Below the pieces are notes generated by a model. The model worked only from the letters and a program-made list of their open reading frames with translations. It ran no database searches and was not told where the DNA came from. From Escherichia coli (GTDB taxonomy: Bacteria > Pseudomonadota > Gammaproteobacteria > Enterobacterales > Enterobacteriaceae): 64,000 nucleotides of DNA. The stretch is from NCBI RefSeq assembly GCF_048403405.1, contig NZ_CP183129.1. One strand, written 5' to 3'. Positions 1-34,212 of the stretch are shown in pieces; positions within the stretch are counted from its first letter, which is position 1; each line of letters begins with the position of its first letter. Both the position numbers and the translations under genes were made by a program.

Positions 1-2
1 TC

Positions 3-80
3 CAGGCAGAGCATGAGGAATTTGCATTTGATATGAGCGACAGCCACAAAGAGCGACTTGCGGCGTTTGATGGGGTATGA
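3..80 (+). CDS. 3' end of an unidentified ORF entering from upstream of the window (C-terminus ...QAEHEEFAFDMSDSHKERLAAFDGV)
   Basis: Open frame 3 from the window edge to TGA at 78-80; its stop overlaps the ATG of the next ORF (ATGA), suggesting translational coupling. No family recognised. Confidence 0.25.
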   Translation, partial: QAEHEEFAFDMSDSHKERLAAFDGV

Positions 81-367
81 CGAGAATGACTGAAACTGAT
101 CTACTAAAAATAATTCGCCGCATTACCGGAATCAGTCAGCAGCCTGACGAACAGGCTACACAGCCGGACAGCGTGATAGCCGAAAATTACGCGCGTGTGG
201 TGGCTGAGGTGATGCGCCGTGACGGTATTGAGCTTAACGGCGTGGATATGCGCAACATACGAACCAGAGTCCTTGAGTTGCTGGCATACCGTCGCCGTTC
301 TCAACAACGGAGGGAGAGCGCGAAAAATACTTACCAGTGGAAGAAGCCGGAACGACTGCGGCGGTAA
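77..367 (+). CDS. hypothetical protein, 96 aa, basic C-terminus; not recognised
   Basis: ORF-track ORF with E. coli-like codon composition, ATGA-coupled to the upstream frame. It sits where I expect yhdJ downstream of fis; no minus-strand ORF here resembles a methyltransferase. Confidence 0.4.
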   Translation: MTRMTETDLLKIIRRITGISQQPDEQATQPDSVIAENYARVVAEVMRRDGIELNGVDMRNIRTRVLELLAYRRRSQQRRESAKNTYQWKKPERLRR

Positions 368-1086
368 CTTGCTGATATTCCCGATAACGCAAAATTGCGT
401 TGGCTGGCATAGTGCAAATTTGCACGATGACCTAACCCATTGACTTTTCTTCAATCCTCAATTTTGAGGAGGCCGGAAGATAAAAAACTGTCAAAACTTG
501 TCATGCAAAACGTTACCAGCACGGCTATTGATTTATTCGGCCCCTGCAACTGCTCCCAGAATGGTGGGGATCTGAAATCCGACCCTGAAAAAGTGCGCAA
601 AAGTGGTACGCAAAAATTAGCGTCCAGCCACAGCCACCAGCTAGACAGAACGCCCAGAGCATTGTCAGTAACTGGTTGATATTCCCGACAGCCCCAAAAT
701 GGGTTGGCTGGTGGGTGAGTTGCAGATCTGCAACTCGACCATGAAACTACGGAAACTACCCGTAGTTTGGGTAGTAAGAGTAACACCCAGATTCTGGGGC
801 TTACTCGCGATACCCAAATAAAGGGTATCGGTGGACGAAATATTATTTCTCATATGTGAGCACCGAAGGCGGAATTCCGCCCTCGGTTATCTATCATGCA
901 CAGGGAGAAGCAGGGCAAAACTCTTGCCATGGCGTCTTCCGGACCGCTCACCACACCGTTTTTATCCCCATTAAAAATGAAAAAACACATCACTGCGGAG
1001 ACATAACCACTGGCAGGTATCTATTCTATTTATTATTGTTCGGTTTCGTTCGTGCTTATGTGCAGTCAGTGGTGCAGTCATTTTAA

Positions 1087-1125
1087 TAAAAAAGGCGCTT
1101 CCCCATGCCGAGTAGCGCCTTTTTA
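1087..1125. terminator. bidirectional rho-independent terminator downstream of fis
   Basis: A-run, 7-bp stem AGGCGCT/AGCGCCT, T-run; reads as hairpin plus U-tract on both strands, immediately 3' of the fis stop. Confidence 0.6.
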
Positions 1126-1148
1126 ATCAAGCATTTAGCTAACCTGAA

Positions 1149-1445
1149 TTAGTTCATGCCGTATTTTTTCAATTTTTTACGCAGCGTACCACGGTTGATG
1201 CCCATCATCAGCGCAGCACGGGTCTGGTTACCACGGGTGTATTGCATCACCATGTCCAACAGGGGCTGTTCTACTTCAGCCAGTACCAGCTCATAGAGGT
1301 CATTCACATCCTGACCGTTCAGTTGAGCAAAATAGTTCTTCAGTGCCTGTTTAACCGAGTCACGCAGGGGTTTTTGGGTTACCTGATCCTGAGAGTTAAC
1401 GGTAGAAACGGTCAGTACGTCAGAATTTACGCGTTGTTCGAACAT
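1149..1445 (-). CDS. fis: DNA-binding protein Fis (nucleoid-associated global regulator)
   Basis: 98-aa translation [21 protein letters not shown]...[13 protein letters not shown] matches Fis. Confidence 0.98.
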
Positions 1446-1470
1446 AGTTCTGTCAGCTCTTTATTTCTGT

Positions 1471-2436
1471 TTACGCAAAATTTTCGAAGTATGCCTCCAA
1501 CGCCTCCAGCTGTTCGCTGGCATCCTCAATGGCGTTGAATGTGCGCCGAAACTGGTCATTTGGAGCGTGTTCCTGGAGATACCAGGAAACGTGTTTACGT
1601 GCAATTCGGTACCCTTTTGCCGGACCATAAAAGTCATGCAGTTCCCGAACGTGCGCGCAAAGCAAGCGCTTAACCTCTGCCAAAGGCAGCGGGGGCAGCA
1701 ACTCCCCAGTGTCCAGATAATGCTGGATTTCCCGAAAGATCCAGGGTCTTCCCTGAGCTGCGCGGCCTATCATCAGGGCATCCGCCCCTGTATAGTCGAG
1801 CACAGCTCTGGCTTTAAGCGGGTCAGTAATGTCGCCATTCGCGATAACCGGAATGGAAACTTTCTGCTTAACTGCCCGAATACTGTCGTACTCAGCTTCT
1901 CCATTGAACAAACAGGCGCGTGTACGGCCATGAATGGTCAGAGCCTGAATGCCACAGTCTTCAGCCAGTTGGGCAATCTCTTCGCAGTTACGGTGTTCCG
2001 GTGCCCAGCCGGTGCGAATCTTCAGGGTAACAGGAACGTCCACTGCATTGACGACCTCGGTAAGGATCGATTTAACGACATCCGGGTACTGCAAGAGGGC
2101 TGAACCTGCGAGCTTGCGATTCACTTTTTTAGCCGGGCAACCCATATTGATATCAATAATCTGGGCACCGCTTTCCACGTTAATACGTGCTGCATCTGCC
2201 ATTTCTTTCGGATCGCTACCAGCAATTTGCACGGTGCGAATACCGGGTTCATCAATGTGCACCATCCGTAAACGAGATTTGTCGCTTTCCCAAACCTGAG
2301 GGTTAGAAGACATCATCTCGGATACTGTCAATCCGGCTCCCATCTCGTAGCACAACGTCCGAAAAGGTCTGTCTGTAATGCCAGCCATGGGCGCTGCGAT
2401 CAGGCGATTTCTGAGCTGATATTGTCCGATGCGCAT
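1471..2436 (-). CDS. dusB: tRNA-dihydrouridine synthase B
   Basis: 321 aa, Dus family motifs, immediately upstream of fis in the same operon. Confidence 0.95.
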
Positions 2437-2620
2437 GAGTTAAGAAATGACCATACTGTGACTGCAAGGCGGCGTATATTACGCATTTTTTGCACGAGAT
2501 GAAAGGCCAAACTTTGACCAATCCTCTGAGATGGATCAAAGAATTGCATTTAAAATGAGCGTGGCGCGATAATTACTCATAAAAATCATCATATTAGAAA
2601 ATGTTGACTAAAATTTACAC
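2437..2620 (-). promoter_or_regulatory. dusB-fis operon promoter region
   Basis: AT-rich region directly upstream of the dusB start; known to carry the growth-phase regulated fis promoter. Individual sites not mapped here. Confidence 0.4.
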
Positions 2621-2763
2621 TCCAAGAAATTTGAGTAAGTTCTCAATTTTTCTTTATGAATGAAAATTTTGGCACGCAAATTTGCGTAAATAATCAGCAA
2701 ATTTACGTGCCTTTTGTGAGCTTGCTCGCACTTCGGCTTGGTCACCTTACGGTGATGCGAAGG

Positions 2764-3645
2764 TTAATTCTTACGACCGGTAATGCGGCACCACTCTTCT
2801 TTTTCCACGACCGGGTCCAGTGCGAAGCTGTCGGCATAAGCTTCGCAAACGCTCTCTGCCTGGCTTGCCAGAATACCGGAAAGGCCCAGCAAACCGCCTG
2901 AAACCGGCAGGACGCTGATTAACGGTGCCAGTTCACGTAATGGGCCTGCAAGGATGTTAGCGACCACCACGTCGGCTTTCATTTCTTCTGGCTGATCTTT
3001 CGGTAAGTAGAGTTCCAGACGGTCAGAGACGCCATTACGTTCCGCGTTGTCGCGGCTGGCCTGAATCGCCTGCGGATCGATATCAATACCAATGGCTTTT
3101 GCTGCACCCAGTTTCAGCGCCGCGATAGCCAGAATGCCGGAACCACAGCCAAAGTCGATGACTGTTTTACCGGTTAAATCGAGGCTGTCGAGCCATTGCA
3201 GGCACAGAGAGGTAGTTGGATGGGTACCCGTACCAAACGCCAGCCCTGGGTCTAACATTACGTTGACGGCGTTTTCGTCCGGCACATCACGCCAGCTTGG
3301 GCAGATCCACAGTCGTTCACCAAAGCGCATCGGGTGGAAATTATCCATCCATTCGCGCTCCCAGTCTTTATCTTCCAGTTGTTCGATTTTATGCGCGAAG
3401 ACTGCGCCGAGCAGCGGATGGTTTTCCAGAATCGCCACCACGTCGTTCATATCGGTTTCAGCGTCGAACAGACCAATCACATCGGTGTCGCCCCACAGGC
3501 GCGTTTCGCCCGGCAGCGGCTCAAACACAGGCGTATCGTGGGTATCCTGAAAAGTGATAGAAACGGCACCCGCTTCCATCAGCGCATCGCTAAGATCTTC
3601 CGCGTTCGCGCCGGTGGTGTTCAGTTTCAGTTGGATCCAAGGCAT
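2764..3645 (-). CDS. prmA: ribosomal protein L11 methyltransferase
   Basis: 293 aa, [11 protein letters not shown]... N-terminus and SAM-binding motif [13 protein letters not shown]. Confidence 0.95.
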
Positions 3646-3656
3646 GGCAAAACTCT

Positions 3657-5108
3657 TTATTTATCAGTAGTCAAAACGGTAGCTTGCGGGACGGATGTAC
3701 CGAAACGGTTTCCGACCAGGAAAGCCAGCAAACTTAGTAGTAACGAGGGCACGATAGGGTGGAAGCCCAGGTACTGAATATTCAGCGTCGCGAGTACGGC
3801 ATACAGCACGCCGCCAACGATCATCGCACTTAGCGCGCCTTTGGCGTTGGCGCGTTCCCAGTAAAGACCCAGCACCAGCGGCCACAGGAAAACGGCTTCC
3901 AGCCCACCGAAGGCCAGCAAATTCAGCCAGATGATCATTTCTGGCGGCTTCCAGGCGGCAAGCAGCAGCAACGCACCGAGAACTAACGTAATTACCGCCG
4001 ACATCCGCTTCAGACGCGTCTCGTTTTGCATTTGATCCGGACGGATATTCAAATAGAGATCTTTAATGATCGTAGCGGAACTTTGCAGCAACTGGGCATT
4101 GATCGTCGACATGATCGCAGCCATAGGTGCAGCCAGGAAGATCCCGGCAGCAAACGGTGGCAACACTTTTACCATTAACGTCGGGATCACCAGGTCCGGT
4201 ACGGTGAGATCGGGGATCACCGCCCGACCTAACGCTCCGGCCAGGTGCATACCGAACATCAGGATTGCGACCACAATCGTACCGATGATGATCCCCCGAT
4301 GTACGGCTTTGCTGTCTTTATAAGAGATACAGCGCACCGCAGTATGCGGCAGGCCAATCACGCCAAAACACACCAGCACCCAGAACGACGTCATAAACGC
4401 AGGCGACAGAATATCGTCAGCGCCTTGTGGCGTAACCAGTTGCGGATCGATGGTTTGCAGCGTCTCTACCGCATTGCTTAAGCCGCCAGCAGCATGGACC
4501 ACGCCAATAAGCAGCACAATGGTGCCAATCAGCATCACCAGCCCTTGCATGGTGTCGTTCAGCACGCTGGCGCGAAAGCCACCAAAGGCGGTGTAGAGCG
4601 CAATGCTGATGCCAAAAATCAGCAAACCTGTTTCATAAGGAATACCCGCCGCAGTTTCCAGCAGGCGCGCACCGCCGATAAACTGCACGGCCATCGCACC
4701 AACGAACGCAACCAGCAAACTCAAACTCGCCAGCCACACCAGCAGACGACTCTGGTAGCGGGCAAATAGCATATCGTTCAGCGTCACCGCATTGTAGCGG
4801 CGCGCAAGAATCGCGAACTTCTTGCCGAGAATACCGAGCGAAAGCCAGACCGCAGGAAGCTGAATCATCGCCAGCAATACCCAACCCAGGCCGTATTTAT
4901 AAGCAGCGCCAGGCCCGCCGATAAACGAACTGGCACTGATATAGGTCGCGGTGAGCGTCATCGCTAGCACAATACCGCCCATAGAGCGGCTACCGAGGAA
5001 ATACTCATTAAGGAAGGTGCCGGTGCTCCGTTTACGCATCGCATAAACAGAGATACCGAACACCACCACCAGATAGGCGACCAGCGGTAGAATCACTTCA
5101 AGCTGCAT
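3657..5108 (-). CDS. panF: sodium/pantothenate symporter
   Basis: Multi-TM SSS-family translation; start set at MQLEVILPL (483 aa); the track ORF begins 2 codons earlier at 5114. Confidence 0.93.
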
Positions 5109-5340
5109 CGTCATCCTCCAGTGGGATATCGCGATAGATAAATTTCACCATCGCCCAGCACAGTCCAATAAACAGCAGCGGCGTCAGGATGCAGGCCATC
5201 TCAAACCAGCGCGGAAAGCCGGTAAAACCGGGGGCAACGCCAGGTAAGTAAGCGGCTACTAACCATACCGCCAGATACAAAAGGGTCAGCCCCAGCGCCC
5301 AGCGCGCCTCTTTATGGGCCTGAACAAAACGAGTGTCCAT
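5098..5340 (-). CDS. yhdT: small inner-membrane protein YhdT (DUF997)
   Basis: 80 aa with two hydrophobic segments; overlaps the panF start by 11 bp as a coupled pair. Confidence 0.85.
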   Translation of the reverse strand: MDTRFVQAHKEARWALGLTLLYLAVWLVAAYLPGVAPGFTGFPRWFEMACILTPLLFIGLCWAMVKFIYRDIPLEDDDAA

Positions 5341-5448
5341 TTTTTGTCCCTGATGGGTGAAGAAAGCGGGGATTGTACCTTATGGGGGTTGTCGATCCCC
5401 AGTAATAAAAAAGGCCGGAAAATCCGGCCTTTTGACGCTTTTGCAGTC

Positions 5449-6798
5449 TTATTTTTCCTGAAGACCGAGTTTTTTCTCCAGATAGTGGATATTAGTACCA
5501 CCATGCTGGAAGTTCTCGTCATTCATGATGCGGATCTGTAGATCAACGTTGGTTTTGATACCGTCGATGATCAGCTCCTGCAGCGCATTCTTCATGCGGG
5601 CAATCGCCACGTCACGGTTTTCACCGTAGCAAATCAGCTTACCGATCATTGAGTCATAGTACGGCGGTACGGTGTAGCCCGCGTAGATATGAGACTCCCA
5701 ACGTACGCCAAAACCGCCAGGTGCGTGGAAACGGGTAATTTTGCCCGGACTTGGCAGGAAGGTGTTCGGATCTTCGGCGTTGATACGACATTCCACCGCA
5801 TGGCCGCGAACGTGAACTTCTTCTTGCTTGATCGACAGCGGTTGACCAGCAGCGATACGCAGCTGTTCTTTGATCAGGTCAACGCCGGTGATCATTTCAG
5901 TAACCGGGTGTTCTACCTGAATACGGGTGTTCATTTCGATGAAATAGAACTCGCCGTTTTCGAACAGGAACTCGAAAGTACCCGCACCGCGATAGCCGAT
6001 ATCAATACATGCTTTAGCGCAACGTTCGCCGATGTAGCGACGCAGTTCCGGGGTAATGCCTGGTGCTGGTGCTTCTTCGACCACTTTCTGGTGGCGGCGC
6101 TGCATGGAGCAGTCACGTTCCGCCAGATAGATAGCGTTGCCCTGACCGTCAGCCAGTACCTGAATCTCGACGTGGCGAGGATTTTCCAGGTATTTCTCCA
6201 TGTAAACCATATCGTTGCTGAAAGCAGCTTTCGCTTCCGCACGGGTCATGGAGATGGATTGTGCCAGTTCAGCGTCGCCGCGCACTACGCGCATACCGCG
6301 ACCGCCGCCGCCGCCGGAGGCTTTGATAATCACCGGATAACCAATGCGTTTAGCAATGGCGCGGTTTTTATCCATATCGTCGCCCAGCGGGCCGTCAGAA
6401 CCCGGTACGCAAGGAACACCCGCTTTTTTCATCGCCGCGATTGCGGATACTTTGTCGCCCATCAGGCGAATGGTTTCTGCTTTCGGGCCGATGAAGATAA
6501 AGCCGGAGCGTTCAACCTGCTCGGCAAAATTGGCGTTCTCGGAGAGGAAGCCGTAACCCGGATGGATTGCTACTGCGCCGGTGATTTCAGCGGCGCTGAT
6601 GATTGCCGGGATGTTCAGATAACTTTTTACTGACGGAGCAGGGCCGATACAGACCGTTTCATCTGCCAGTAATACGTGTTTTAGATCGCGATCCGCGCTG
6701 GAGTGCACAGCGACAGTCTTGATGCCCAGTTCTTTACAGGCACGAAGAATACGCAATGCAATCTCGCCGCGGTTGGCAATAACAATTTTATCCAGCAT
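5449..6798 (-). CDS. accC: biotin carboxylase subunit of acetyl-CoA carboxylase
   Basis: 449 aa from [16 protein letters not shown]; the track ORF extends 13 codons upstream into the accB-accC spacer. Confidence 0.97.
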
Positions 6799-11501: not shown

Positions 11502-12671
<1,170 letters not shown>

Positions 12672-14336: not shown

Positions 14337-14930
14337 ATGACTTCTCTGTATTTAGCTTCCGGTTCTCCGCGTCGTCAGGAGTTACTTGCGCAACTTGGCG
14401 TAACCTTTGAACGTATTGTTACGGGCATTGAGGAGCAGCGTCAGCCGCAGGAGAGCGCGCAGCAGTATGTTGTGCGTCTGGCGCGCGAGAAAGCACAGGC
14501 GGGTGTCGCGCAAACGGCGCAGGATCTCCCGGTGCTGGGTGCGGATACTATCGTTATCCTGAACGGAGAAGTGCTGGAGAAACCGCGCGACGCAGAGCAT
14601 GCGGTGCAGATGTTGCGCAAATTATCGGGTCAGACCCATCAGGTAATGACGGCAGTGGCGTTGGCTGACAGCCAGCACATTCTCGATTGCCTGGTGGTCA
14701 CCGATGTGACTTTCAGAACGTTAACAGACGAAGACATCGCGGGCTATGTCGCCAGCGGTGAACCGTTAGATAAAGCAGGTGCATACGGTATTCAGGGGCT
14801 GGGTGGCTGTTTTGTCAGGAAGATAAATGGCAGCTATCACGCCGTAGTCGGCTTACCGCTGGTTGAAACGTATGAATTATTAAGTAATTTTAACGCACTG
14901 CGTGAGAAAAGGGATAAACATGACGGCTGA
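14337..14930 (+). CDS. yhdE: Maf-like nucleotide pyrophosphatase
   Basis: 197 aa, [21 protein letters not shown] (Maf signature). Confidence 0.93.
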
Positions 14931-24245: not shown

Positions 24246-26213
24246 ATGGGTATTTTCTCCATTGCTAACCAACATATTCGCTTTGCGGTAAAACTGGCGA
24301 CCGCCATTGTACTGGCGCTGTTTGTTGGCTTTCACTTCCAGCTGGAAACGCCACGCTGGGCGGTACTGACAGCGGCGATTGTTGCCGCCGGTCCGGCCTT
24401 TGCTGCGGGAGGTGAACCGTATTCTGGCGCTATTCGCTATCGTGGCTTTTTGCGCATCATCGGCACATTTATTGGCTGTATTGCCGGACTGGTGATCATT
24501 ATTGCGATGATCCGTGCACCATTATTGATGATTCTGGTGTGCTGTATCTGGGCCGGTTTTTGTACCTGGATATCCTCGCTGGTACGAATAGAAAACTCGT
24601 ATGCGTGGGGGCTGGCCGGTTATACCGCGCTGATCATTGTGATCACCATTCAGCCGGAACCATTGCTTACGCCGCAGTTTGCCGTCGAACGTTGTAGCGA
24701 GATCGTTATCGGTATTGTGTGTGCCATTATGGCGGATTTGCTCTTTTCTCCGCGATCGATCAAACAAGAAGTGGATCGAGAGCTGGAAAGTTTGCTGGTC
24801 GCGCAATATCAATTAATGCAACTCTGTATCAAGCATGGCGATGGTGAAGTTGTCGATAAAGCCTGGGGCGATCTGGTGCGACGCACCACGGCGTTACAAG
24901 GTATGCGCAGCAACCTGAATATGGAATCTTCCCGCTGGGCGCGGGCCAATCGACGTTTAAAAGCGATTAATACGCTATCGCTGACGCTGATTACACAATC
25001 CTGCGAAACTTATCTTATTCAGAATACGCGCCCGGAATTGATCACTGATACTTTCCGCGAATTTTTTGACACGCCGGTAGAAACCGCGCAGGACGTCCAC
25101 AAGCAGCTCAAACGCCTGCGGAGAGTTATCGCCTGGACTGGGGAACGGGAAACGCCTGTCACCATTTATAGCTGGGTCGCGGCGGCAACGCGTTATCAGC
25201 TTCTCAAGCGCGGCGTTATCAGTAACACAAAAATCAACGCCACCGAAGAAGAGATCCTGCAAGGCGAACCGGAAGTCAAAGTAGAGTCAGCCGAACGTCA
25301 TCATGCGATGGTTAACTTCTGGCGAACCACACTTTCCTGCATTCTGGGGACGCTTTTCTGGCTGTGGACGGGCTGGACTTCCGGCAGTGGTGCAATGGTG
25401 ATGATTGCGGTAGTGACGTCACTGGCAATGCGTTTGCCGAATCCACGCATGGTGGCGATCGACTTTATCTACGGGACGCTGGCAGCGCTGCCGTTAGGGC
25501 TGCTCTACTTTTTGGTGATTATCCCTAATACTCAACAGAGCATGTTGCTGCTGTGTATTAGCCTGGCAGTGCTGGGATTCTTCCTCGGTATAGAAGTACA
25601 GAAACGGCGACTGGGCTCGATGGGGGCGCTGGCCAGCACCATAAATATTATCGTGCTGGATAACCCGATGACTTTCCATTTCAGTCAGTTTCTCGACAGC
25701 GCATTAGGGCAAATCGTCGGCTGTGTGCTCGCGTTCACCGTTATTTTGCTGGTGCGGGATAAATCGCGCGACAGGACTGGACGTGTACTGCTTAATCAGT
25801 TCGTTTCTGCTGCTGTTTCCGCGATGACTACCAATGTGGCACGTCGTAAAGAGAACCACCTCCCGGCACTTTATCAGCAGCTGTTTTTGCTGATGAATAA
25901 GTTCCCAGGGGATTTGCCGAAATTTCGCCTGGCGCTGACGATGATTATCGCGCACCAGCGCCTGCGTGATGCGCCGATCCCGGTTAACGAGGATTTATCG
26001 GCGTTTCACCGACAAATGCGCCGCACAGCAGACCATGTGATATCTGCCCGTAGCGATGATAAACGTCGTCGGTACTTTGGCCAGTTGCTGGAAGAACTTG
26101 AAATCTACCAGGAAAAGCTACGCATCTGGCAAGCGCCACCGCAGGTGACGGAACCGGTTCATCGGCTGGCGGGGATGCTCCATAAGTATCAACATGCGTT
26201 GACCGATAGTTAA
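24246..26213 (+). CDS. aaeB: aromatic carboxylic acid efflux pump subunit AaeB
   Basis: 655-aa polytopic membrane protein of the aromatic acid exporter family. Confidence 0.95.
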
Positions 26214-26216
26214 GTC

Positions 26217-26246
26217 AAAACCGACGCCAAAAGCGTCGGTTTTTTC
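26217..26246 (+). terminator. rho-independent terminator of aaeXAB
   Basis: AAAACCGACGC-CAAAA-GCGTCGGTTTTTT directly after the aaeB stop. Confidence 0.8.
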
Positions 26247-26304
26247 ATGGCTATACTTAGCGATGAACGGCAGAACTCGCCGCGAAACGTGACGGTGGCA
26301 ACAG

Positions 26305-26577
26305 ATGAATATTTATACCTTTGATTTTGATGAGATTGAGAGTCAGGAGGATTTTTATCGCGACTTCAGCCAAGCCTTTGGTCTGGCGAAAGATAAGGTA
26401 CGCGATCTCGACTCACTATGGGATGTGTTAATGAACGATGTCCTGCCGCTACCACTTGAGATTGAATTTGTTCATCTGGGAGAGAAAACGCGTCGCCGTT
26501 TTGGCGCGTTAATATTGCTGTTTGATGAGGCAGAGGAAGAGTTGGAAGGGCATTTGCGTTTTAATGTTCGTCATTAG
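26305..26577 (+). CDS. yhcO: barstar-like ribonuclease-inhibitor family protein
   Basis: 90 aa, acidic, [27 protein letters not shown]; no barnase-like partner visible nearby. Confidence 0.85.
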
Positions 26578-26632
26578 CGCAAAAAAAAGCCCCCGAACCG
26601 AGGGCAATATCGTCGGACAAGACGATGAGGGT

Positions 26633-26896
26633 TTATTTGTACAGTTCAGCCGTAGCGTGCCAGGTGTCACCGCTACGAGCTTCCGTAATCTGGTAGGCCG
26701 TTGCGCCTTTCTCTTCTGCTTTTTTGTTCAGCATTTCACGCATATCCATTGGCGAAGACGCCACACCACTTACGGATACGGTCCCGATTGCTTCACGATT
26801 TTGTGCTTGTGCAGCATCAATGGAGTCGGCAGCGAATGCACCGAAAGATAGAACAGAAAGTACGCTTAATGCAGCAACAGTGGTTTTGATTTTCAT
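26633..26896 (-). CDS. yhcN: DUF1471 (YhcN/BhsA family) periplasmic stress protein
   Basis: 87 aa from MKIKTTVAALSVLSVLSFGAFA (signal peptide); the track ORF is 17 codons longer. Confidence 0.88.
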   Translation of the reverse strand: MKIKTTVAALSVLSVLSFGAFAADSIDAAQAQNREAIGTVSVSGVASSPMDMREMLNKKAEEKGATAYQITEARSGDTWHATAELYK

Positions 26897-27261
26897 GATT
26901 TTTACCTCGACATAATCTTTTAGCTGGGCCTTTGTTTCGTGACCCATATCACAAAATCAAGTATACACTAATTATTGAACTAATTAATACCACGCTAACT
27001 GTTTCAGTTGATACTAAGTGTTAAAAATGTGAATTTTAATAACAAAAAAGAATTAAAAACACGGTTATTTATTTTTAATTCTAGTATTTTCAATTAGATA
27101 ATGAATTTTGCATAATGTGCTTTTTTTATCGTATGTATTCATTGTGTGAATGACATGTCGCAGTAAAACGCACTATTCGTTAAATTAATCGCAGGGGAAA
27201 GCAGGGGGGTTGAGAGGGATAAGCAACATTTTCCCCGCCGCCAGAAGCGACGGGGCAGAGA

Positions 27262-27735
<474 letters not shown>

Positions 27736-28091
27736 TCACCCGATATGGTGGTTGATACAACATTATTGTGCATACAGATGAATTTTTATGCAAACAGTCA
27801 GCCCTGAAGAAGGCTGAAATAATGTTATGAAAGAGCGGGATTTTATCAAATTTCGTTATTGAGAAACATGCCTGCGTCACGGCATGCAAATTCTGCTTAA
27901 AAGTAAATTAATTGTTATCAAATTGATGTTGTTTTGGCTGAACGGTAGGGTATATTGTCACCACCTGTTGGAATGTTGCGCTAATGCATAAGCGACTGTT
28001 AATTACGTAAGTTAGGTTCCTGATTACGGCAATTAAATGCATAAACGCTAAACTTGCGTGACTACACATTCTTGAGATGTGGTCATTGTAA

Positions 28092-29105
<1,014 letters not shown>

Positions 29106-29122
29106 TTGATTAGCGGATAATA

Positions 29123-29152
29123 AAAAACCGGAGCGCAGACTCCGGTTTTTTG
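29123..29152. terminator. bidirectional rho-independent terminator (mdh / degS convergent)
   Basis: AAAAAACCGGAGCGCAGACTCCGGTTTTTT with A-run and T-run flanking a perfect stem. Confidence 0.85.
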
Positions 29153-29167
29153 TTTTGAGCGCACGAC

Positions 29168-30235
29168 TTAATTGGTTGCCGGATATTCCTGAATGGTGAC
29201 CTGCAGCGTTAACTGCTTATCATCACGCATCACTACAACCGGGATCACCGAGCCAGGGCGAATTTCCGCCACCTGATCCATCGTCTCCAGAGCAGAGATG
29301 GCCGGTTTGTTATCCACCGAAATAATCAAATCGTTGACCTGAATACCCGCATTCGCCGCCGGGCCGTCAGGTGACACTTCATTAACCACGATCCCTTGCA
29401 GTTGATCTATACCACCGCCCTGCGCGTGCAGTGGTGCGATCTCACGTCCGCCGATACCAATGTAGCCGCGGATCACGCGACCATCGCGGATCAGTTTATC
29501 CATAATTTTGGTTGCTAACTGGAAAGGAATCGCAAAGCCGATACCTTCCGGCGTTTCGCCATCGTTACTCTTATCAAACGACAGCGTGTTAATGCCCATC
29601 AGTTCGCCCAGCGAGTTCACCAGCGCGCCGCCAGAGTTACCGTGGTTAATGGAAGCATCGGTTTGCAGGAAGTTTTGCCGCCCGGTCGGGTTCAGACCGA
29701 TTCGACCCGTGGCACTAATAATCCCCTGGGTAATGGTCTGCCCGAGGTTGTACGGGTTACCGATCGCTAGTACCACGTCGCCAATGTGCGGTACGCGACG
29801 TGCATTGATTGGAATGGTAGGTAAACCGCCAGTGGCATTAATTTTAAGTACCGCCAGATCGGTTAGAGAGTCAGATCCCACCAGCAATGCTTCAAATACA
29901 CGCCCATCCTGTAAGGCGACGATGATCTGATCGGCGTCGTTGATGACGTGTTTATTGGTGATGATATAACCGCGTTGATCCATGATTACACCGGATCCCA
30001 GGGTGCGGATCTCAAGCTGGTTGTGAGAGTTGGTGTTCAAACCACGGTTGTAAACGTTAACCACCGCTGGTGCGGCGCGGCGAACCGCCAGATTATAGCT
30101 GGCAGGCGTCTCATCGGTACTGTCAAATTGCGGAGTGGAAAGCGGGTTAAGGCTGCGCAGCGAAGGCATGGCAACCAGCAGAATAGCGCCGACAATTAAT
30201 CCAATCGCAACGGAACGTAAGAGCTTCACAAACAT
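29168..30235 (-). CDS. degS: regulated intramembrane proteolysis serine protease DegS
   Basis: 355 aa, N-terminal TM, trypsin-like fold, single C-terminal PDZ. Confidence 0.95.
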   Translation of the reverse strand: MFVKLLRSVAIGLIVGAILLVAMPSLRSLNPLSTPQFDSTDETPASYNLAVRRAAPAVVNVYNRGLNTNSHNQLEIRTLGSGVIMDQRGYIITNKHVINDADQIIVALQDGRVFEALLVGSDSLTDLAVLKINATGGLPTIPINARRVPHIGDVVLAIGNPYNLGQTITQGIISATGRIGLNPTGRQNFLQTDASINHGNSGGALVNSLGELMGINTLSFDKSNDGETPEGIGFAIPFQLATKIMDKLIRDGRVIRGYIGIGGREIAPLHAQGGGIDQLQGIVVNEVSPDGPAANAGIQVNDLIISVDNKPAISALETMDQVAEIRPGSVIPVVVMRDDKQLTLQVTIQEYPATN

Positions 30236-30324
30236 GATGGAGGCGTCATTAAAAAAGGGAACGGCAGCAGCATACCACGAGTTAACCGGACATCACACGT
30301 CAGCCTGATGCCCGGTTTACGACA

Positions 30325-31692
30325 TTAACGCATCAGCAGATAGATGCTTTCATTGCCGCGTACAATTTGCAGGGCGATGATGGCCGGTTTTGCCGCCAGC
30401 ACTTTACGCATTTCAGCAATCGAGTTCACCCGATCGCGGTTGACGCCAATGATCACATCGTCTTTTTGCAAGCCTGCCTGAGCAGCTGGGCTTCCTTTGA
30501 CAACCTCATCGATCTTAATACCTTTGCCGCCATCTTTTAGCTGACCATCGCTCAACGTTGCACCTTCAAGCGCTGGCGTGATCATTTCAGCGCTGGCCGA
30601 CGAAGAGGTGCTGGTATCGAGCGTCACTTCTACTTCCAGTGGTTTGCCGTTACGCAGCAGGCCAAGCTTCACTTTCGTGCCCGGCTCGGTGGTTGCGATA
30701 CGAGAGCGCAACTCAGCAAAGCTATTCAGCGGTTTGCCGTTGAGGCTGGTAATAATATCGCCCGCTTTGACGCCCGCTTTTGCCGAGCCAGAACCTGGCA
30801 ACACTTCGCTGACAAACGCGCCACGCTGCACGTCAAGGTTGAAGGCTTTGGCGATATCGGCACTCATCTCTGTGCCTTTGATGCCTAACAGACCGCGTTT
30901 GATTTCACCAAAGTCGATAAGCTGCTGCGCCAGTGTTCGCGCCATATTACTGGGGATGGCAAATCCAATCCCGACGCTCCCGCCGCCAGGCGCAAGGATT
31001 GCCGTGTTGATGCCAATTAACTCACCGTTAAGGTTTAACAGTGCACCGCCGGAGTTACCGCGGTTAATGGAAGCATCTGTCTGGATAAAGTTTTCAAGAC
31101 CTTCAAGATTCAACCCACTGCGGCCTAATGCTGACACAATGCCAGAGGTGGCGGTTTGCCCAAGGCCAAATGGGTTACCGACCGCCACGGCAAAATCACC
31201 GACGCGCAATTTATCGGAGTCGGCAATAGCGATTTGCGTTAATTTGCTCGGGTTTTGAATTTGCAACAGGGCGATATCGCTCTGGTCATCGCTACCAATC
31301 AGTTTTGCATCAAACTCGCGCCCATCATTGAGCTGAATACTGATTTTCTGTGCCTGATTAATCACATGGTTGTTAGTCAGCACATAGCCTTTACTGGCGT
31401 TGATGATGACACCGGAGCCTAAACCTTCGAAGGGTTGTGCAGGTTGATCCGGTAAATCATCACCAAAAAACTTTTTGAATTCTTCCGGGATTTTCTGTCC
31501 CTGACTGGCCGTTCCTTCCACCCGTACGCTCACCACTGCCGGAAGCACTTTTTCCAGCATTGGAGCCAGACTGGGGAGAGGGGCCTGATCGGCAACCTGG
31601 CCTGGAATCGACGCAACGGCCTGAAATGACGCCGAGAGAGTTAACCCGACACTTAACGCTAATGCACTCAACAGCTGGGTTTGTTTTTTCAT
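30325..31692 (-). CDS. degQ: periplasmic serine endoprotease DegQ
   Basis: 455 aa from MKKQTQLLSALALSVGLTLSA (signal peptide); HtrA family with two PDZ domains. Confidence 0.95.
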   Translation of the reverse strand: MKKQTQLLSALALSVGLTLSASFQAVASIPGQVADQAPLPSLAPMLEKVLPAVVSVRVEGTASQGQKIPEEFKKFFGDDLPDQPAQPFEGLGSGVIINASKGYVLTNNHVINQAQKISIQLNDGREFDAKLIGSDDQSDIALLQIQNPSKLTQIAIADSDKLRVGDFAVAVGNPFGLGQTATSGIVSALGRSGLNLEGLENFIQTDASINRGNSGGALLNLNGELIGINTAILAPGGGSVGIGFAIPSNMARTLAQQLIDFGEIKRGLLGIKGTEMSADIAKAFNLDVQRGAFVSEVLPGSGSAKAGVKAGDIITSLNGKPLNSFAELRSRIATTEPGTKVKLGLLRNGKPLEVEVTLDTSTSSSASAEMITPALEGATLSDGQLKDGGKGIKIDEVVKGSPAAQAGLQKDDVIIGVNRDRVNSIAEMRKVLAAKPAIIALQIVRGNESIYLLMR

Positions 31693-31845
31693 TATTCCTG
31701 CTCTCGTACCTGAATGATAAGAAAAGAGATTCAAAACAGTTTGATGTTATTGAATTTTCAGACGGCTAACAATGAGACACCAGATTAAATGATAGTCGGG
31801 GAGGGAAAGAAGAGGAGGGCGCAATGGCTGCGCCCGAAAAATAAA

Positions 31846-32244
31846 TTAGTCGCGCTTCGCGCCAGTACGCAGCAGGCCGGACGCGCCTTCAGAATAGTCG
31901 CGAGGCATTTGCACCGGTGCCTGATCGTTGCTGGCTTCAGACTCTGCCAGACGATTACGGAACGGGTTTGCTTCAGCAGACAGTTCCGGCAGCAGGCTGC
32001 TGGAGCTTTTCGCCATGTGCTGATACAGCTGGCGATAGTCGTGCGCCATGGTATCCAGTAATTCCGCGCTGCGGGCAAAGTGGCTAACCAGCTCTTCGCG
32101 ATACTCGTCCAGTTCAGCTTTATTCTTTTCCAGTTCGTACTGCAACGCCTGTTGCTGGCGTAGTTTACGATTACCAAAACGCATGGCCACAGCACCAATA
32201 ATGATGCCGACGACTAACCCAATTAGCGCATATTCCCAGGTCAT
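31846..32244 (-). CDS. zapG: Z-ring associated inner-membrane protein ZapG (YhcB)
   Basis: 132 aa from MTWEYALIGLVVGIIIGAVAMRF. Confidence 0.9.
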   Translation of the reverse strand: MTWEYALIGLVVGIIIGAVAMRFGNRKLRQQQALQYELEKNKAELDEYREELVSHFARSAELLDTMAHDYRQLYQHMAKSSSSLLPELSAEANPFRNRLAESEASNDQAPVQMPRDYSEGASGLLRTGAKRD

Positions 32245-32437
32245 GAACATCTCCCGTTGTCTTTTGTTTCCGTAGGGTGTTGGCTTCAGGCTCCATGCCT
32301 GCGGCTGATTATGCCACTATAACCGTTAATTCCACAGAAGTGGAATCCCGACTGCATATCGCGTAGTGTAGAACGGCCTTTTTTTCGTCAACCGTGAACA
32401 ACGGCGCACCGATTATTCAAGGAATAACAATAAGATC

Positions 32438-33565
32438 ATGCAAAGCATTACCCCAACATCGCAATACCTGAAGGCGCTCAATGAAGGCAGCCATCAACCC
32501 GACGACGTTCAAAAAGAGGCCGTCAGCCGCCTGGAAATTATTTATCAGGAACTCATCAATAGCACGCCTCCAGCCCCCAGGACGAGTGGGCTAATGGCGC
32601 GGGTCGGTAAGCTGTGGGGTAAACGCGAAGACACAAAGCATACGCCAGTGCGTGGCTTATATATGTGGGGCGGTGTAGGACGCGGGAAAACCTGGCTGAT
32701 GGACCTTTTCTATCAAAGCCTGCCGGGAGAGCGGAAACAGCGTCTGCACTTTCACCGTTTTATGCTGCGGGTGCACGAAGAGCTGACCGAATTACAAGGC
32801 CAAAGCGATCCGCTGGAAATTATTGCCGATCGCTTTAAAGCAGAAACTGACGTGCTCTGTTTTGACGAATTTTTTGTTTCTGATATTACCGACGCCATGC
32901 TACTTGGCGGCCTGATGAAAGCCCTGTTCGCTCGCGGAATAACGCTGGTAGCGACGTCAAATATTCCGCCGGACGAACTTTATCGAAATGGCCTGCAACG
33001 TGCGCGTTTTTTGCCTGCAATCGATGCTATTAAACAGCATTGTGATGTAATGAACGTGGACGCTGGTGTTGATTATCGACTGCGTACACTCACTCAGGCG
33101 CATCTGTGGCTTTCGCCCCTCAACGATGAAACCCGGGCGCAAATGGATAAACTATGGTTGGCGCTGGCGGGGGCGAAACGAGAAAATTCACCGACATTAG
33201 AAATCAACCATCGGCCATTGGCGACAATGGGCGTCGAGAACCAGACGCTGGCGGTCTCTTTTACTACGCTGTGCGTCGACGCCCGCAGTCAGCATGACTA
33301 TATTGCGCTCTCACGCCTCTTTCATACGGTCATGTTGTTTGATGTACCAGTTATGACGCGGTTGATGGAGAGCGAAGCGCGACGTTTTATTGCGCTGGTG
33401 GATGAGTTTTACGAGCGCCATGTCAAATTAGTGGTGAGTGCAGAAGTGTCGCTGTATGAAATTTATCAGGGTGAGCGGCTGAAGTTTGAGTTCCAGCGTT
33501 GCCTGTCACGTCTGCAAGAGATGCAAAGCGAAGAGTATCTGAAGCGCGAGCATTTAGCGGGTTAA
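32438..33565 (+). CDS. zapE: cell division ATPase ZapE (YhcM, AFG1-like)
   Basis: 375 aa with Walker A GGVGRGKTWLMD. Confidence 0.93.
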   Translation: MQSITPTSQYLKALNEGSHQPDDVQKEAVSRLEIIYQELINSTPPAPRTSGLMARVGKLWGKREDTKHTPVRGLYMWGGVGRGKTWLMDLFYQSLPGERKQRLHFHRFMLRVHEELTELQGQSDPLEIIADRFKAETDVLCFDEFFVSDITDAMLLGGLMKALFARGITLVATSNIPPDELYRNGLQRARFLPAIDAIKQHCDVMNVDAGVDYRLRTLTQAHLWLSPLNDETRAQMDKLWLALAGAKRENSPTLEINHRPLATMGVENQTLAVSFTTLCVDARSQHDYIALSRLFHTVMLFDVPVMTRLMESEARRFIALVDEFYERHVKLVVSAEVSLYEIYQGERLKFEFQRCLSRLQEMQSEEYLKREHLAG

Positions 33566-33696
33566 AACCTGCCACAAATCACAAAAAGGGGTCGATCTTT
33601 GACCCCGACTTCTCTATAATCCTGCGACCCCACGTTACAAGAAAGTTTTTTTCCCAAAACTTTTTGTGTGCTGGCATAGGCTATTCGAAGGGGTAG

Positions 33697-34212
<516 letters not shown>

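Follow-up and report, generated by a model that had tools for sequence, protein, structure and literature searches.

The first 1165 positions of the analysed DNA (a stretch of 64,000 nucleotides from Escherichia coli, called the window here) very probably belong to a capsid-forming phage-inducible chromosomal island (cf-PICI) of 15.3 kb, which is inserted at the 3' end of fis and of which they form the right end. Elements of this type are phage satellites that produce their own small HK97-type capsids, package their own DNA and require the tails of helper phages (10.1101/2022.09.08.507074). The window begins 78 nt before the end of terL, and the remaining part of the island was deduced from identical genomes. 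An earlier note, based on the letters of the window, had considered that the segment downstream of fis might be the edge of an inserted element. Each feature that it had placed there was found where it had put it, and the supposed element was recognized as an integrated phage satellite. PICIs at fis and cf-PICIs have both been published, thus the main finding is known biology.

Counted from the beginning of attL up to the last position before attR, the island in locus L001 comprises 15,285 bp, and the layout in strain 4621 is the same. In E. coli D8 and in strain 4621 the genes follow each other in the order int, AlpA-type regulator, Icd-like, DUF4222, primase, capsid, HK97 protease, portal, connector, HNH, TerS (P27 family), TerL and ORF96. 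These names were borne out by PHROGs, NCBIfam and Pfam: the integrase matched phrog_1 (E 1e-59), the primase phrog_864 (E 1e-191), the AlpA protein Phage_AlpA PF05930 (E 1.7e-14) and the 553-aa TerL protein phrog_9 (E 2e-180); the capsid also had a PHROG match, and the protease (TIGR01543), portal (TIGR01537), connector (TIGR01560) and TerS (TIGR01558) all scored above the respective cut-offs. None of the 20 annotated genes between attL and attR is a tail or lysis gene, three of them being annotated as hypothetical proteins only, and no defence gene was detected by PADLOC in the accessory slot. It has been described that cf-PICIs are approximately 10-15 kb long, have int at the left end, carry AlpA, primase and their own HK97-type genes, and are devoid of tail and lysis genes (10.1101/2022.09.08.507074). 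The island agrees with this description in its size, in its integrase, AlpA and primase genes and in the arrangement of its HK97-type morphogenesis and packaging genes, whose order, capsid-protease-portal-connector followed by hnh-terS-terL, is that of the proteobacterial cf-PICIs (10.1101/2022.09.08.507074).

The earlier note had proposed to look upstream for an integrase and for a direct repeat of the fis 3' flank. The integrase is there in the identical genomes, and both junctions are marked by an exact 80-bp repeat (attL at L001 5801-5880, beside yhdJ; attR at L001 21086-21165), whereas the empty site in K-12 has a single copy. The attR copy includes the last 17 nt of fis with the stop codon and rebuilds the 3' end of the gene. 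The segment had been correctly perceived as foreign; its boundary, however, is not at position 1148, as had been assumed, but is formed by the 80-bp repeat, which extends 17 nt into fis. No tRNA or tmRNA was found at the junction. Very probably, the tyrosine integrase of the island recombined attP with the 3' end of fis; the recombination duplicated the 80 bp, so that fis and its terminator stayed intact at attR and the second copy came to lie beside yhdJ at attL. The packaging operon reads rightwards, convergently with fis, with terL and the gene of a small basic protein as its last genes (Table 1).

A 22-bp sequence next to attR is a probable arm-type site, to which the integrase would bind. 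The second copy is located across the att core at L001 6008-6029, in the same orientation and just upstream of int, and this is the sole long repeat shared by the right-end non-coding DNA and the remainder of the island. As stated in the passages of PMC10111431 that deal with fis PICIs, the attL and attR sites of these elements share the identity block TACGGCATGAACTAA at the fis terminus, often reaching into the terminator. The reverse complement of this block, TTAGTTCATGCCGTA, is present at 1149-1163, within the 80-bp repeat, and at attL too. With regard to the definition of fis PICIs in the same passages (PMC10111431), AlpA was found in the island and tail genes are absent by annotation.

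Table 1. Features of the right end of the island and of the adjoining chromosomal genes (window coordinates; bit scores refer to covariance model R1)
Feature	Position	Strand	Remarks
terL, 3' end	3-80	+	last 25 codons and stop; C-terminus QAEHEEFAFDMSDSHKERLAAFDGV
ORF96, last gene of the packaging operon	77-367	+	96-aa basic helical protein; phrog_1561, E 1e-53
Repeat unit 1	362-411	+	box TAACTTGCTGATA and hairpin AACGCA/TGCGTT; 53.2 bits
Lineage-specific extra module, ~300 bp, between repeat copies	412-665	+	
Second small hairpin	412-429		inside module 412-665
Repeat unit 2	430-480		inside module 412-665; hairpin TCCTCA/TGAGGA; 46.5 bits
Repeat unit 3	666-715	+	box TAACTGGTTGATA and hairpin CCCA/TGGG; 55.2 bits
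Conserved hairpin-rich non-coding module	716-990	+	common to other satellite types
Probable integrase arm-type site	1059-1080	+	22 bp, TGTGCAGTCAGTGGTGCAGTCA, two copies of GTGCAGTCA
attR	1086-1165	.	exact 80-bp direct repeat of attL; contains the fis terminator hairpin (~1088-1130)
fis	1149-1445	-	intact, 98-aa ORF; annotated Fis WP_000462905.1 in identical DNA
dusB	1471-2436	-	
prmA	2764-3645	-	

It had been pointed out that in K-12 fis is soon followed by yhdJ and that no methyltransferase-like ORF is present between the first base of the window and fis. Both observations were correct: in K-12 yhdJ is located 85 bp past fis, and this junction is intact in 5309 of the 5426 complete E. coli genomes. 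The earlier note had also allowed that the segment might be ordinary core sequence of E. coli, but the full 1-1148 segment was detected in only 38 of the 5426 genomes (<1%). The suggestion of a lineage-specific replacement was not upheld: in the matching genomes yhdJ is still present beyond the island, at a distance of 15.3 kb, which shows that the gene was displaced and not replaced.

A true lineage-specific replacement would exist if the genome from which the window derives carried only a dead remnant (terL 3' end, ORF96, trailer and attR) after a deletion that took yhdJ as well. Exactly such a state is found in E. coli KL53, where an IS3 element in acrF is directly followed by the last 822 bp of terL, and yhdJ, yhdU, acrS and acrE are missing; in some strains such as KL53 the DNA is 99.8% identical, yet only the remnant is present. 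KL53-like strains lost yhdJ and most of the island later, by an IS3-associated deletion. A partial TerL is annotated in 4 of 30 among the matches listed, which would also fit a remnant. Nevertheless, we consider it highly improbable that the window represents such a remnant, and equally that the segment is a replacement in this sense, because four genomes share 100% identity with the window over 12 kb, as compared with only 98.5% for KL53 (over 17.6 kb), and strain 4621, the one of the four that was read upstream, has yhdJ and the complete island upstream of the window-identical DNA. There is virtually no chance that the two plus-strand ORFs constitute a toxin-antitoxin or addiction module, an interpretation to which their ATGA stop/start overlap had given rise. 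The overlap is present as described, the ATG of ORF96 overlapping the stop codon of TerL, but the upstream ORF is the C-terminus of the 553-aa terminase, and by this identity a type II toxin-antitoxin operon was rejected. ORF96, on its part, belongs to no Pfam family and gave a single, marginal PADLOC match (BrxA, E 0.0096), which was disregarded, as was a role as defence protein. The pair consists of terL and the last gene of a phage-type packaging operon.

The DNA at 3-80 is annotated as 'terminase large subunit' in 38 E. coli genomes. ORF96, which RefSeq starts at the next ATG (86-367, 93 aa), encodes a protein with a pI of 10.8. Its 975 close homologues are 'hypothetical' throughout, and only 39 representatives (at 50% identity) were found among 1.84 billion proteins. 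No sequence match was obtained in the PDB. The AF2 model consists of three helices (pLDDT 73), and with this model no fold match was detected in the PDB or BFVD. The gene is under purifying selection, with pN/pS values of 0.31 for the whole gene and 0.09 for its last 12 codons, and the C-terminal tail, Y-x-W-K-K-P-E-R-L-R-R, is invariant. A nucleic-acid constraint as the cause of this invariance was rejected because the synonymous sites of the tail vary as elsewhere (pS 0.29).

Between ORF96 and attR lies a non-coding trailer of ~720 bp (368-1085). The earlier note had described it as some 700 bp of repeat-rich non-coding DNA, and it was indeed found to be rich in repeats and hairpins and to contain no PHROG-matching ORF; ten ORFs of 36-111 aa in 368-1084 were inspected for hidden small genes, and none had a PHROG hit. 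Pieces of 368-1084 have matches in 1399 of the 5426 E. coli genomes. Folded as RNA, the stretch 360-1090 exceeds shuffled sequences in stability (z = -4.6). The TAA of repeat unit 1 doubles as the stop codon of ORF96. The box of this unit is the reverse complement of the IHF consensus (consensus match at 365-377, minus strand); unit 3 has its match at 669-681, on the minus strand as well, and carries a Chi octamer at 707. A direct repeat, 364-407 and 668-711, recurs with a spacing of 304. Besides the two hairpins listed in Table 1, the 412-665 module comprises ~185 bp with no assigned feature, and it is missing from most related satellites, whose matches fall in two pieces that skip it. For the 716-990 module the consensus fold of 14 homologues predicted stem-loops at approximately 717-736, 738-772, 778-806 and 808-830; a 26-bp palindrome is located at 862-887, and one-sided changes in the module are nearly all G.U-compatible on the plus strand.

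Scanning of positions 1-3000 with Rfam models (cmscan, E up to 1) yielded nothing within 368-1085. The matches obtained were at chance level, and the sole one in the vicinity was a sub-threshold STnc40-like match on the fis terminator. Comparison of the trailer with 50,697 phage records gave no meaningful match, which argues that it is neither the cos nor a regulatory site of a helper phage. A lambda-type cos in the trailer was rejected: cosN GGGCGGCGACCT with cosQ and cosB is absent from the right end of the island, and in L003, a related PICI of the helper-embedded type, the lambda cos precedes terS (position 14726) and is not part of the trailer. A replication origin at the right end was also rejected because the iterons adjoin the primase gene. 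When the trailer was compared with the remainder of the island, no antisense complementarity beyond chance was seen except for the 22-bp arm repeat, and a consensus scan of the trailer revealed no promoter or strong intrinsic terminator.

We infer that this DNA is transcribed as a structured 3' trailer of the packaging operon; it is built of modular hairpin units, each preceded by an IHF-consensus box, and is followed by integrase arm-type sites and the att core. By analogy with REP/BIME elements, its most likely role would be to end and insulate late transcription and to protect the upstream mRNA, and at the DNA level the boxes may be bound by IHF. Whatever function is considered here for the units or for ORF96 is likewise a proposal.

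In the repeat unit, which is ~50 nt long, a box that agrees with the IHF consensus is combined with a hairpin that has a co-varying stem and an A/U-rich loop of 3-4 nt. The covariance model detected the three copies of the trailer and none in the other 63 kb of the window. Altogether 264 units were identified in 92 loci; they are always co-oriented, and in 79 of the 92 loci they directly follow ORF96. Covariation in the hairpin was greater than in each of 500 shuffles. Near-pairs on the plus strand are G.T in 32 and A.C in 12 cases, a bias underlain by few independent events. The pattern YAANNNNYTGATW, the reverse complement of the IHF consensus WATCARNNNNTTR, fits 89 of 98 distinct units and two of the three window copies. 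The invariant box positions C4 and T15 lie outside what the IHF consensus accounts for. A species-level genome scan with a strict unit pattern gave 10 hits, of which those from Trabulsiella and from four species of Xenorhabdus seem genuine; the others resemble chance matches. The family is absent from Rfam and from the phage records, and no description of it was found in the literature searched; nor was anything relevant found there on an sRNA or IHF link to PICIs or to CP-933C.

The units may tentatively be regarded as a hitherto undescribed family of structured repeats that is under selection and confined to the phage satellites of enterobacteria; in its hairpin a conserved basal C-G clamp and a purine-rich internal loop would be combined with an apical stem that co-varies freely. 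Possibly the units work together with the arginine-rich tail of ORF96. As such, they may, for example, be RNA elements that control how the late transcript is read through or processed in the direction of attP and int, or they may serve as decoys. A role at the level of DNA is possible but doubtful: an array of IHF sites, each beside a short palindrome as in BIME-1/RIP, could conceivably bend the satellite DNA in the vicinity of attP or organise it, and thereby serve, for instance, integrative recombination, replication or the condensation of the DNA in the small capsid. Most boxes fit the IHF consensus, and three of the four N positions in it carry little information; this is in line with such a role, and so is the location of the units between the last gene and attP/attR in satellites that differ in their integrases and att sites. 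In addition, in L004, a circular 12-kb element, the units are inverted relative to the flanking genes, antisense to both, an arrangement that is easier to reconcile with a DNA-level role than with a 3' UTR. On the other hand, the units are 370-720 bp from the att core, beyond the usual reach of arm sites, the left arm has no units, and in 84 of the 92 loci the units have one fixed orientation with respect to ORF96. Moreover, the palindromes vary in sequence yet keep their pairing, which argues for a folded single strand and not for a protein-binding duplex, and the purine richness of the internal loop is confined to one strand, with wobble-compatible changes favouring the plus strand.

It is rather unlikely that the units are selfish or neutral miniature repeats that arose by duplication of the ORF96 3' end with the downstream hairpin and were then shuffled by recombination, serving the satellite at most as a filler that tunes genome length to the small capsid. 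Such an origin would be compatible with the copy number of 1 to 7 and the mosaic arrays, with the presence or absence of the 304-bp module between close relatives, and with the resemblance of the sequence past each hairpin to the last ORF96 codons and TAA. However, conservation from Escherichia to Xenorhabdus extends to the box, to the basal C-G pairs and to the purine-rich internal loop, while the stems change by compensatory substitutions. This pattern indicates selection. The lack of copies outside satellites within the 64-kb window also speaks against selfish repeats. If the units are such a selected family and work together with the ORF96 tail, the two would be a new pair of cis-element and protein in satellite biology and not filler.

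The 'missing yhdJ' reflects the presence of a mobile phage satellite at a hotspot that has been documented before, and not a rearrangement of the core genome. The annotation also gains, as RefSeq shows the segment as 'hypothetical protein' and unannotated DNA. Interest in cf-PICIs is topical since their own capsids combined with tails from different phages lead to spread across species, and a fis-integrated relative with a TerL so similar to that of the tested prototype (see below) can be used as a natural variant. Not only cf-PICIs but also helper-embedded PICIs and other satellites have the array of repeats at the end and the conserved last gene, and no discussion of these two features was found in the literature searched. 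If functional, they would mark a common regulatory or structural module of such satellites.

The prototype cf-PICI is EcCIEDL933, whose small capsids and dependence on tails have been demonstrated experimentally (10.1101/2022.09.08.507074). It is the CP-933C region of E. coli O157:H7 EDL933, and its gene order is the same as that of the fis-integrated island: int, AlpA-type regulator, Icd-like, DUF4222, primase, capsid, protease, portal, connector, HNH, a small ORF, TerS, TerL, an ORF96 homologue and a non-coding array of the same units. Because the TerL proteins are 93% identical and the architecture is identical, the fis-integrated island is presumably inducible, forms small capsids and is transferred with helper tails; its mobility and helper dependence are thus assumed by homology. 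EcCIEDL933 has another integrase and is inserted in the roxA/phoQ intergenic region, whereas the site here is the fis 3' end; the two also differ in the accessory genes located between primase and capsid, and EDL933 has seven tandem units as opposed to the three units and the 716-990 module of the fis-integrated island. In the passages of Tommasini, Mageeney and Williams (2023, PMC10111431) that treat them, fis PICIs have the same fis terminus with TACGGCATGAACTAA, AlpA, and yhdJ on the far side, and nine 'elongated' ones, mainly from Salmonella, are longer than 22 kb. With 43% identity, the integrase of the island is related to the helper-embedded PICI integrase clade. Terminal repeat units are not described in the fis PICI passages of that paper, nor do the terms searched for in its whole text lead to them (PMC10111431).

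Satellite units resemble two further systems. In the BIME-1/RIP elements of E. coli, REP palindromes flank an IHF site. Like these elements, the satellite units are short extragenic repeats that combine an IHF-consensus site with hairpin-forming palindromes, follow an operon and occur in variable tandem number. They have, however, no sequence similarity to REP and contain one hairpin per box instead of two converging REPs per IHF site; BIME-1/RIP elements are spread over the chromosome, whereas the satellite units are confined to phage satellites and are variable in hairpin sequence. The nut sites of lambda consist of boxA and the boxB hairpin, and the N protein carries an arginine-rich motif. 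In the satellites, too, a conserved linear box is followed by a short, sequence-variable hairpin, and the adjacent ORF96 ends in an invariant arginine-rich tail with tryptophan (RRRSQQRRESAKNTYQWKKPERLRR), a likeness to lambda N. In contrast to nut, the satellite loops are 3-4 nt long and A/U-rich and not GNRA-like pentaloops, and the box is unlike boxA; lambda nut sites follow an early promoter, whereas the satellite units stand at the end of the operon.

The DNA to the left of fis in the window had been laid out correctly in the earlier note (the end of an ORF, a 96-aa ORF joined to it by an ATGA overlap, then non-coding DNA), and approximately 720 bp without a credible gene separates ORF96, the 96-aa ORF, from fis. 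It was likewise right in naming yhdJ as the neighbour of fis in K-12; there yhdJ begins 85 bp after fis. Among 5,426 complete E. coli genomes the K-12 type fis-yhdJ junction was found in one piece in 5,309 and was interrupted in about 2 per cent, and megablast detected the complete 1-1148 segment in 38, nearly all remaining genomes matching only a short fis-adjacent stretch. These counts show that yhdJ is the normal neighbour of fis, and that the segment is accessory DNA carried by less than 1 per cent of the genomes.

In E. coli D8, whose DNA is 100 per cent identical to window positions 1-1148, a capsid-forming phage-inducible chromosomal island (cf-PICI) lies between yhdJ and fis, and the segment forms its right end. 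The inserted DNA (15,285 bp) encodes a tyrosine integrase, a 245-aa hypothetical protein, a small HTH regulator (AlpA; PF05930, E 1.7e-14), YlcI/YnfO (on the opposite strand), an Icd-like protein, a hypothetical protein, DUF4222, a primase, three small or unknown genes, major capsid protein, HK97 prohead protease, portal, head-tail connector, HNH endonuclease, a small ORF, TerS (P27 family), TerL and the ORF96 protein. Matches to protein profiles confirmed the gene names, and no tail or lysis genes were found among the annotated genes of the island. The ORF that stops at base 80 encodes the C-terminal end of TerL, and the toxin-antitoxin operon considered in the earlier note found no support; full-length TerL is 93 per cent identical to that of EcCIEDL933. 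Four genomes are 100 per cent identical to the window over 12 kb, and one of them, strain 4621, contains the same complete island with yhdJ on the far side. The suspected edge of an inserted element is real: the D8 island, like that of 4621, has an integrase, and in D8 an 80-bp repeat marks both junctions. The alternative of a replacement does not hold for the exact-match genomes, in which yhdJ is kept beyond the island. Between yhdT and accC (25340-34022 of the D8 locus, L001), D8 also has 8.7 kb of clustered genes for sugar utilisation (kinases, DeoR regulator, tagatose-bisphosphate aldolase, ABC transporter, epimerase); this cluster is absent from the window (5339-5449) and from E. coli KL53.

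Features of the fis region and of the island ends (window positions unless L001, the D8 locus, is indicated)
Feature	Position	Strand	Remark
terL 3' end (ORF tail)	3-80	+	
ORF96	77-367	+	ATG overlaps preceding ORF's stop as ATGA
Repeat unit 1	362-411		covariance model
Repeat unit 2	430-480		covariance model
Repeat unit 3	666-715		covariance model
22-bp sequence TGTGCAGTCAGTGGTGCAGTCA	1059-1080		just left of attR; second copy upstream of int, 128 bp to the right of attL
attL copy of 80-bp repeat	L001 5801-5880		
attR copy of 80-bp repeat	1086-1165		L001 21086-21165
fis	1149-1445	-	E. coli fis region, reversed
dusB	1471-2436	-	
prmA	2764-3645	-	
panF	3657-5114	-	

Comparison of the D8 island ends with the empty site of K-12 revealed that the 80-bp direct repeat is exact at both junctions; the earlier note had proposed to look for such a repeat of the fis 3' flank and for an integrase gene, which is present in the D8 island. 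Since the repeat contains the fis terminator hairpin and the final 17 nt of fis, stop codon included, integration occurred inside the 3' end of fis and the gene was rebuilt. The 22-bp sequence is the only long repeat connecting the right-end DNA with the remainder of the island, and its paired copies are read as putative arm-type sites of the integrase. Tommasini, Mageeney and Williams report that 3,565 genomic islands of Enterobacterales map to fis and class every one as a PICI, and describe an identity block, TACGGCATGAACTAA, at the fis terminus reaching into the terminator, with yhdJ across the island (PMC10111431). In the window the block occupies 1149-1163 (minus strand), and the island integrase is 43 per cent identical to that of a helper-embedded PICI belonging to the integrase clade of that study; the island boundaries match the published description. 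The fis terminator and 3' end (1088-1155, minus strand) gave a sub-threshold Rfam match to the Salmonella sRNA family STnc40 (25.6 bits, where the gathering score is 45). An A-run and a T-run border this terminator, so that it could end transcription from either side, the satellite late operon included.

An island can be reduced to a remnant, as was observed in KL53 (99.8 per cent identical over 1-1148), where an IS3 in acrF directly abuts the final 822 bp of terL (NZ_CP030919.1, 11303-16867); yhdJ, yhdU, acrS, acrE and approximately 13.6 kb of the satellite are gone, and ORF96, the non-coding trailer and attR are retained with 99.8 per cent identity. Partial TerL annotations as in KL53 were seen in at least four among the 30 matches listed. 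That the window's own genome holds only such a remnant is nevertheless very improbable, because its identity with KL53 is only 98.5 per cent over 17.6 kb.

ORF96 is a real gene, with a pN/pS of 0.31 over 39 distinct coding sequences. It falls in phrog_1561, a function-unknown family, and matched no Pfam family. The 975 near-identical homologues, all named hypothetical or prophage proteins, are from Escherichia, Shigella, Salmonella and relatives, and when 1.84 billion representative proteins were searched exhaustively, only 39 representatives, mostly fragments, came up; judged by these searches, the family is narrow. Even the most divergent members share an unchanged C-terminal stretch of 11 residues, Y-x-W-K-K-P-E-R-L-R-R. 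In the tail codons pN/pS is 0.09 and synonymous sites vary as elsewhere in the gene, thus the constraint acts on the peptide. In being rich in arginine and having a tryptophan, the tail is reminiscent of the RNA-binding motif of lambda N, a resemblance only. The AlphaFold model consists of three helices (pLDDT 73), and nothing similar was found in PDB or BFVD.

The tail had been called repeat-rich, and it does contain a 44-nt direct repeat (364-407 and 668-711, 82 per cent identical, 304 bp apart), which comparison with other satellites identified as one unit of a wider family. The unit (about 50 nt) consists of a box, TAAC-N3-YTGATWYTYYCG, a hairpin and YCGG; the hairpin is made up of a basal C-G/G-C clamp, which is conserved, an internal loop rich in purines, an apical stem of 4-11 bp and an A/U-rich loop of 3-4 nt. 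There are at least nine clearly different apical stem sequences, each wholly self-complementary. In an almost gap-free alignment of 34 units, 57 cells were changed on both sides, as against 30 ± 4 after shuffling (0 of 500 shuffles), and covariation scored twice as high as in any slid register; a model-based alignment with 51 distinct rows gave the same result.

Scanning IMG/VR for the unit pattern yielded 84 contigs, whose arrays are mosaics of units. In the whole set, 264 units were found over 92 loci (1-7 per locus), co-oriented in all and mostly spaced by 46-55 bp. The array lies 3' of ORF96 in the same orientation in 84 of the 92 loci, and directly after it in 79 of these 84, the TAA of the unit being the stop codon of the ORF; this association is somewhat inflated, because the scan pattern favoured the first unit. 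Any unit would be able to give ORF96 an in-frame TAA. The DNA 3' of each unit hairpin (e.g. AAGTCGGCGCGGTAAC) resembles a shortened ORF96 end (AAGAAGCCGGAACGACTGCGGCGGTAAC, last 33 nt of 77-367), and sequence comparison suggests that the array arose by duplication of the ORF96 3' end together with the first unit. The covariance model detected no units in the other 63 kb of the window, and this absence is the informative result, because the three window copies are seeds of the model. Single units were also seen in four Xenorhabdus species (L092, L094, L095, L096, L097) and in Trabulsiella guamensis (L093); box, basal clamp and purine-rich loop are unchanged in them, but the stems are new and compensatory, e.g. 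CCTCC/GGAGG. In L092 an AlpA-like gene lies at 1.3 kb and a primase gene at 6 kb from the unit, hence the motif is older than the Escherichia satellites. Two Chi octamers (GCTGGTGG or complement) lie within 80 bp in the tail (634-641, minus; 707-714, plus), and they recur in the non-coding tails of other satellites (L003, L005, L010, L015), some arrays having three or four. At 862-887 an EcoRI site is surrounded by a near-perfect palindrome of 26 bp, ACCGAAGGCGGAATTCCGCCCTCGGT; in relatives the sole mismatch is on the opposite arm, as if the palindrome had been flipped.

As to what the units might do, IHF-consensus boxes beside palindromes point to a role at the DNA level. In 89 of 98 distinct units the box, read as its reverse complement, fits the IHF consensus WATCARNNNNTTR, with low information at three of the four N positions of the consensus, and an IHF site beside a palindrome recalls BIME-1/RIP elements. 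This reading is kept alive by the circular record L004, in which two units adjoin the presumed attP yet are antisense to both neighbouring genes. Other features point to the units acting as folded plus strand: G.T near-pairs outnumber A.C near-pairs in the stems (32 vs 12), the internal loop is purine-rich only on the plus strand, one-sided substitutions in predicted stems of the conserved module next to the units (716-990) are nearly all G.U-compatible on that strand, one pair in these stems shows full compensatory change, and the 731-nt region folds more stably than shuffles (z = -4.6). With moderate confidence we regard the region as a structured 3' trailer of the packaging operon. Such a trailer would end and insulate late transcription before attP/attR, and might stabilise the upstream message, as REP/BIME elements do; IHF is possibly bound at its boxes.

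Three other roles for the trailer were rejected: a cos site (the related satellite L003 has a lambda cos before terS), a replication origin (iterons were found by the primase gene instead) and protein-coding DNA (none of the ten ORFs of 36-111 aa in 368-1084 had a PHROG match). The trailer had no similarity to any phage among 50,697 phage records, no Rfam match in a cmscan of 1-3000 and, the 22-bp repeat aside, no complementarity to the rest of the island.

Just downstream of the D8 primase gene (L001 ~11900-12100), TGTTCACC/GGTGAACAG motifs are repeated around an A/T-rich stretch, in the position and form expected for a satellite replication origin. L004 (pZ1323CEC0013_1-4, NZ_CP148430.1, 12,152 bp, circular) was deposited as a plasmid and has PICI-type gene content (integrase, HTH regulator, TOPRIM/DUF927 primase, DUF4222, Ash, AntA/B, PerC); from these genes, it may be an excised, circular satellite. 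Its two units are at 3091-3208, beside the presumed attP. In E. coli GZEC065 (L003, 5916-16738), a helper-embedded PICI lies within the portal gene of a lambdoid prophage and carries a lambda-type cos (14726) of its own along with genes for TerS, capsid and decoration proteins. At its end are an ORF96 homologue, three units and the 716-990 module that the window also has; its integrase and att site differ from those of the window island.

The observation is a correctly spotted, ordinary mobile-element boundary; publications already cover the element, the family to which it belongs and the attachment site, and identical copies are present in RefSeq genomes. The residual interest is in the terminal repeat family and in ORF96 with its invariant basic tail, for neither of which a description was found in the searchable literature, and which are common to cf-PICIs, helper-embedded PICIs and other satellites. 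EcCIEDL933, the experimentally characterised cf-PICI prototype, builds its own small capsids and packages itself via its own HNH-TerS-TerL, taking only tails from the helper phage (10.1101/2022.09.08.507074; 10.1101/2025.02.11.637232). It has the same gene order as the island, including the ORF96 homologue and the non-coding tail, where seven units are arranged head to tail, but is inserted between roxA and phoQ, not at fis.
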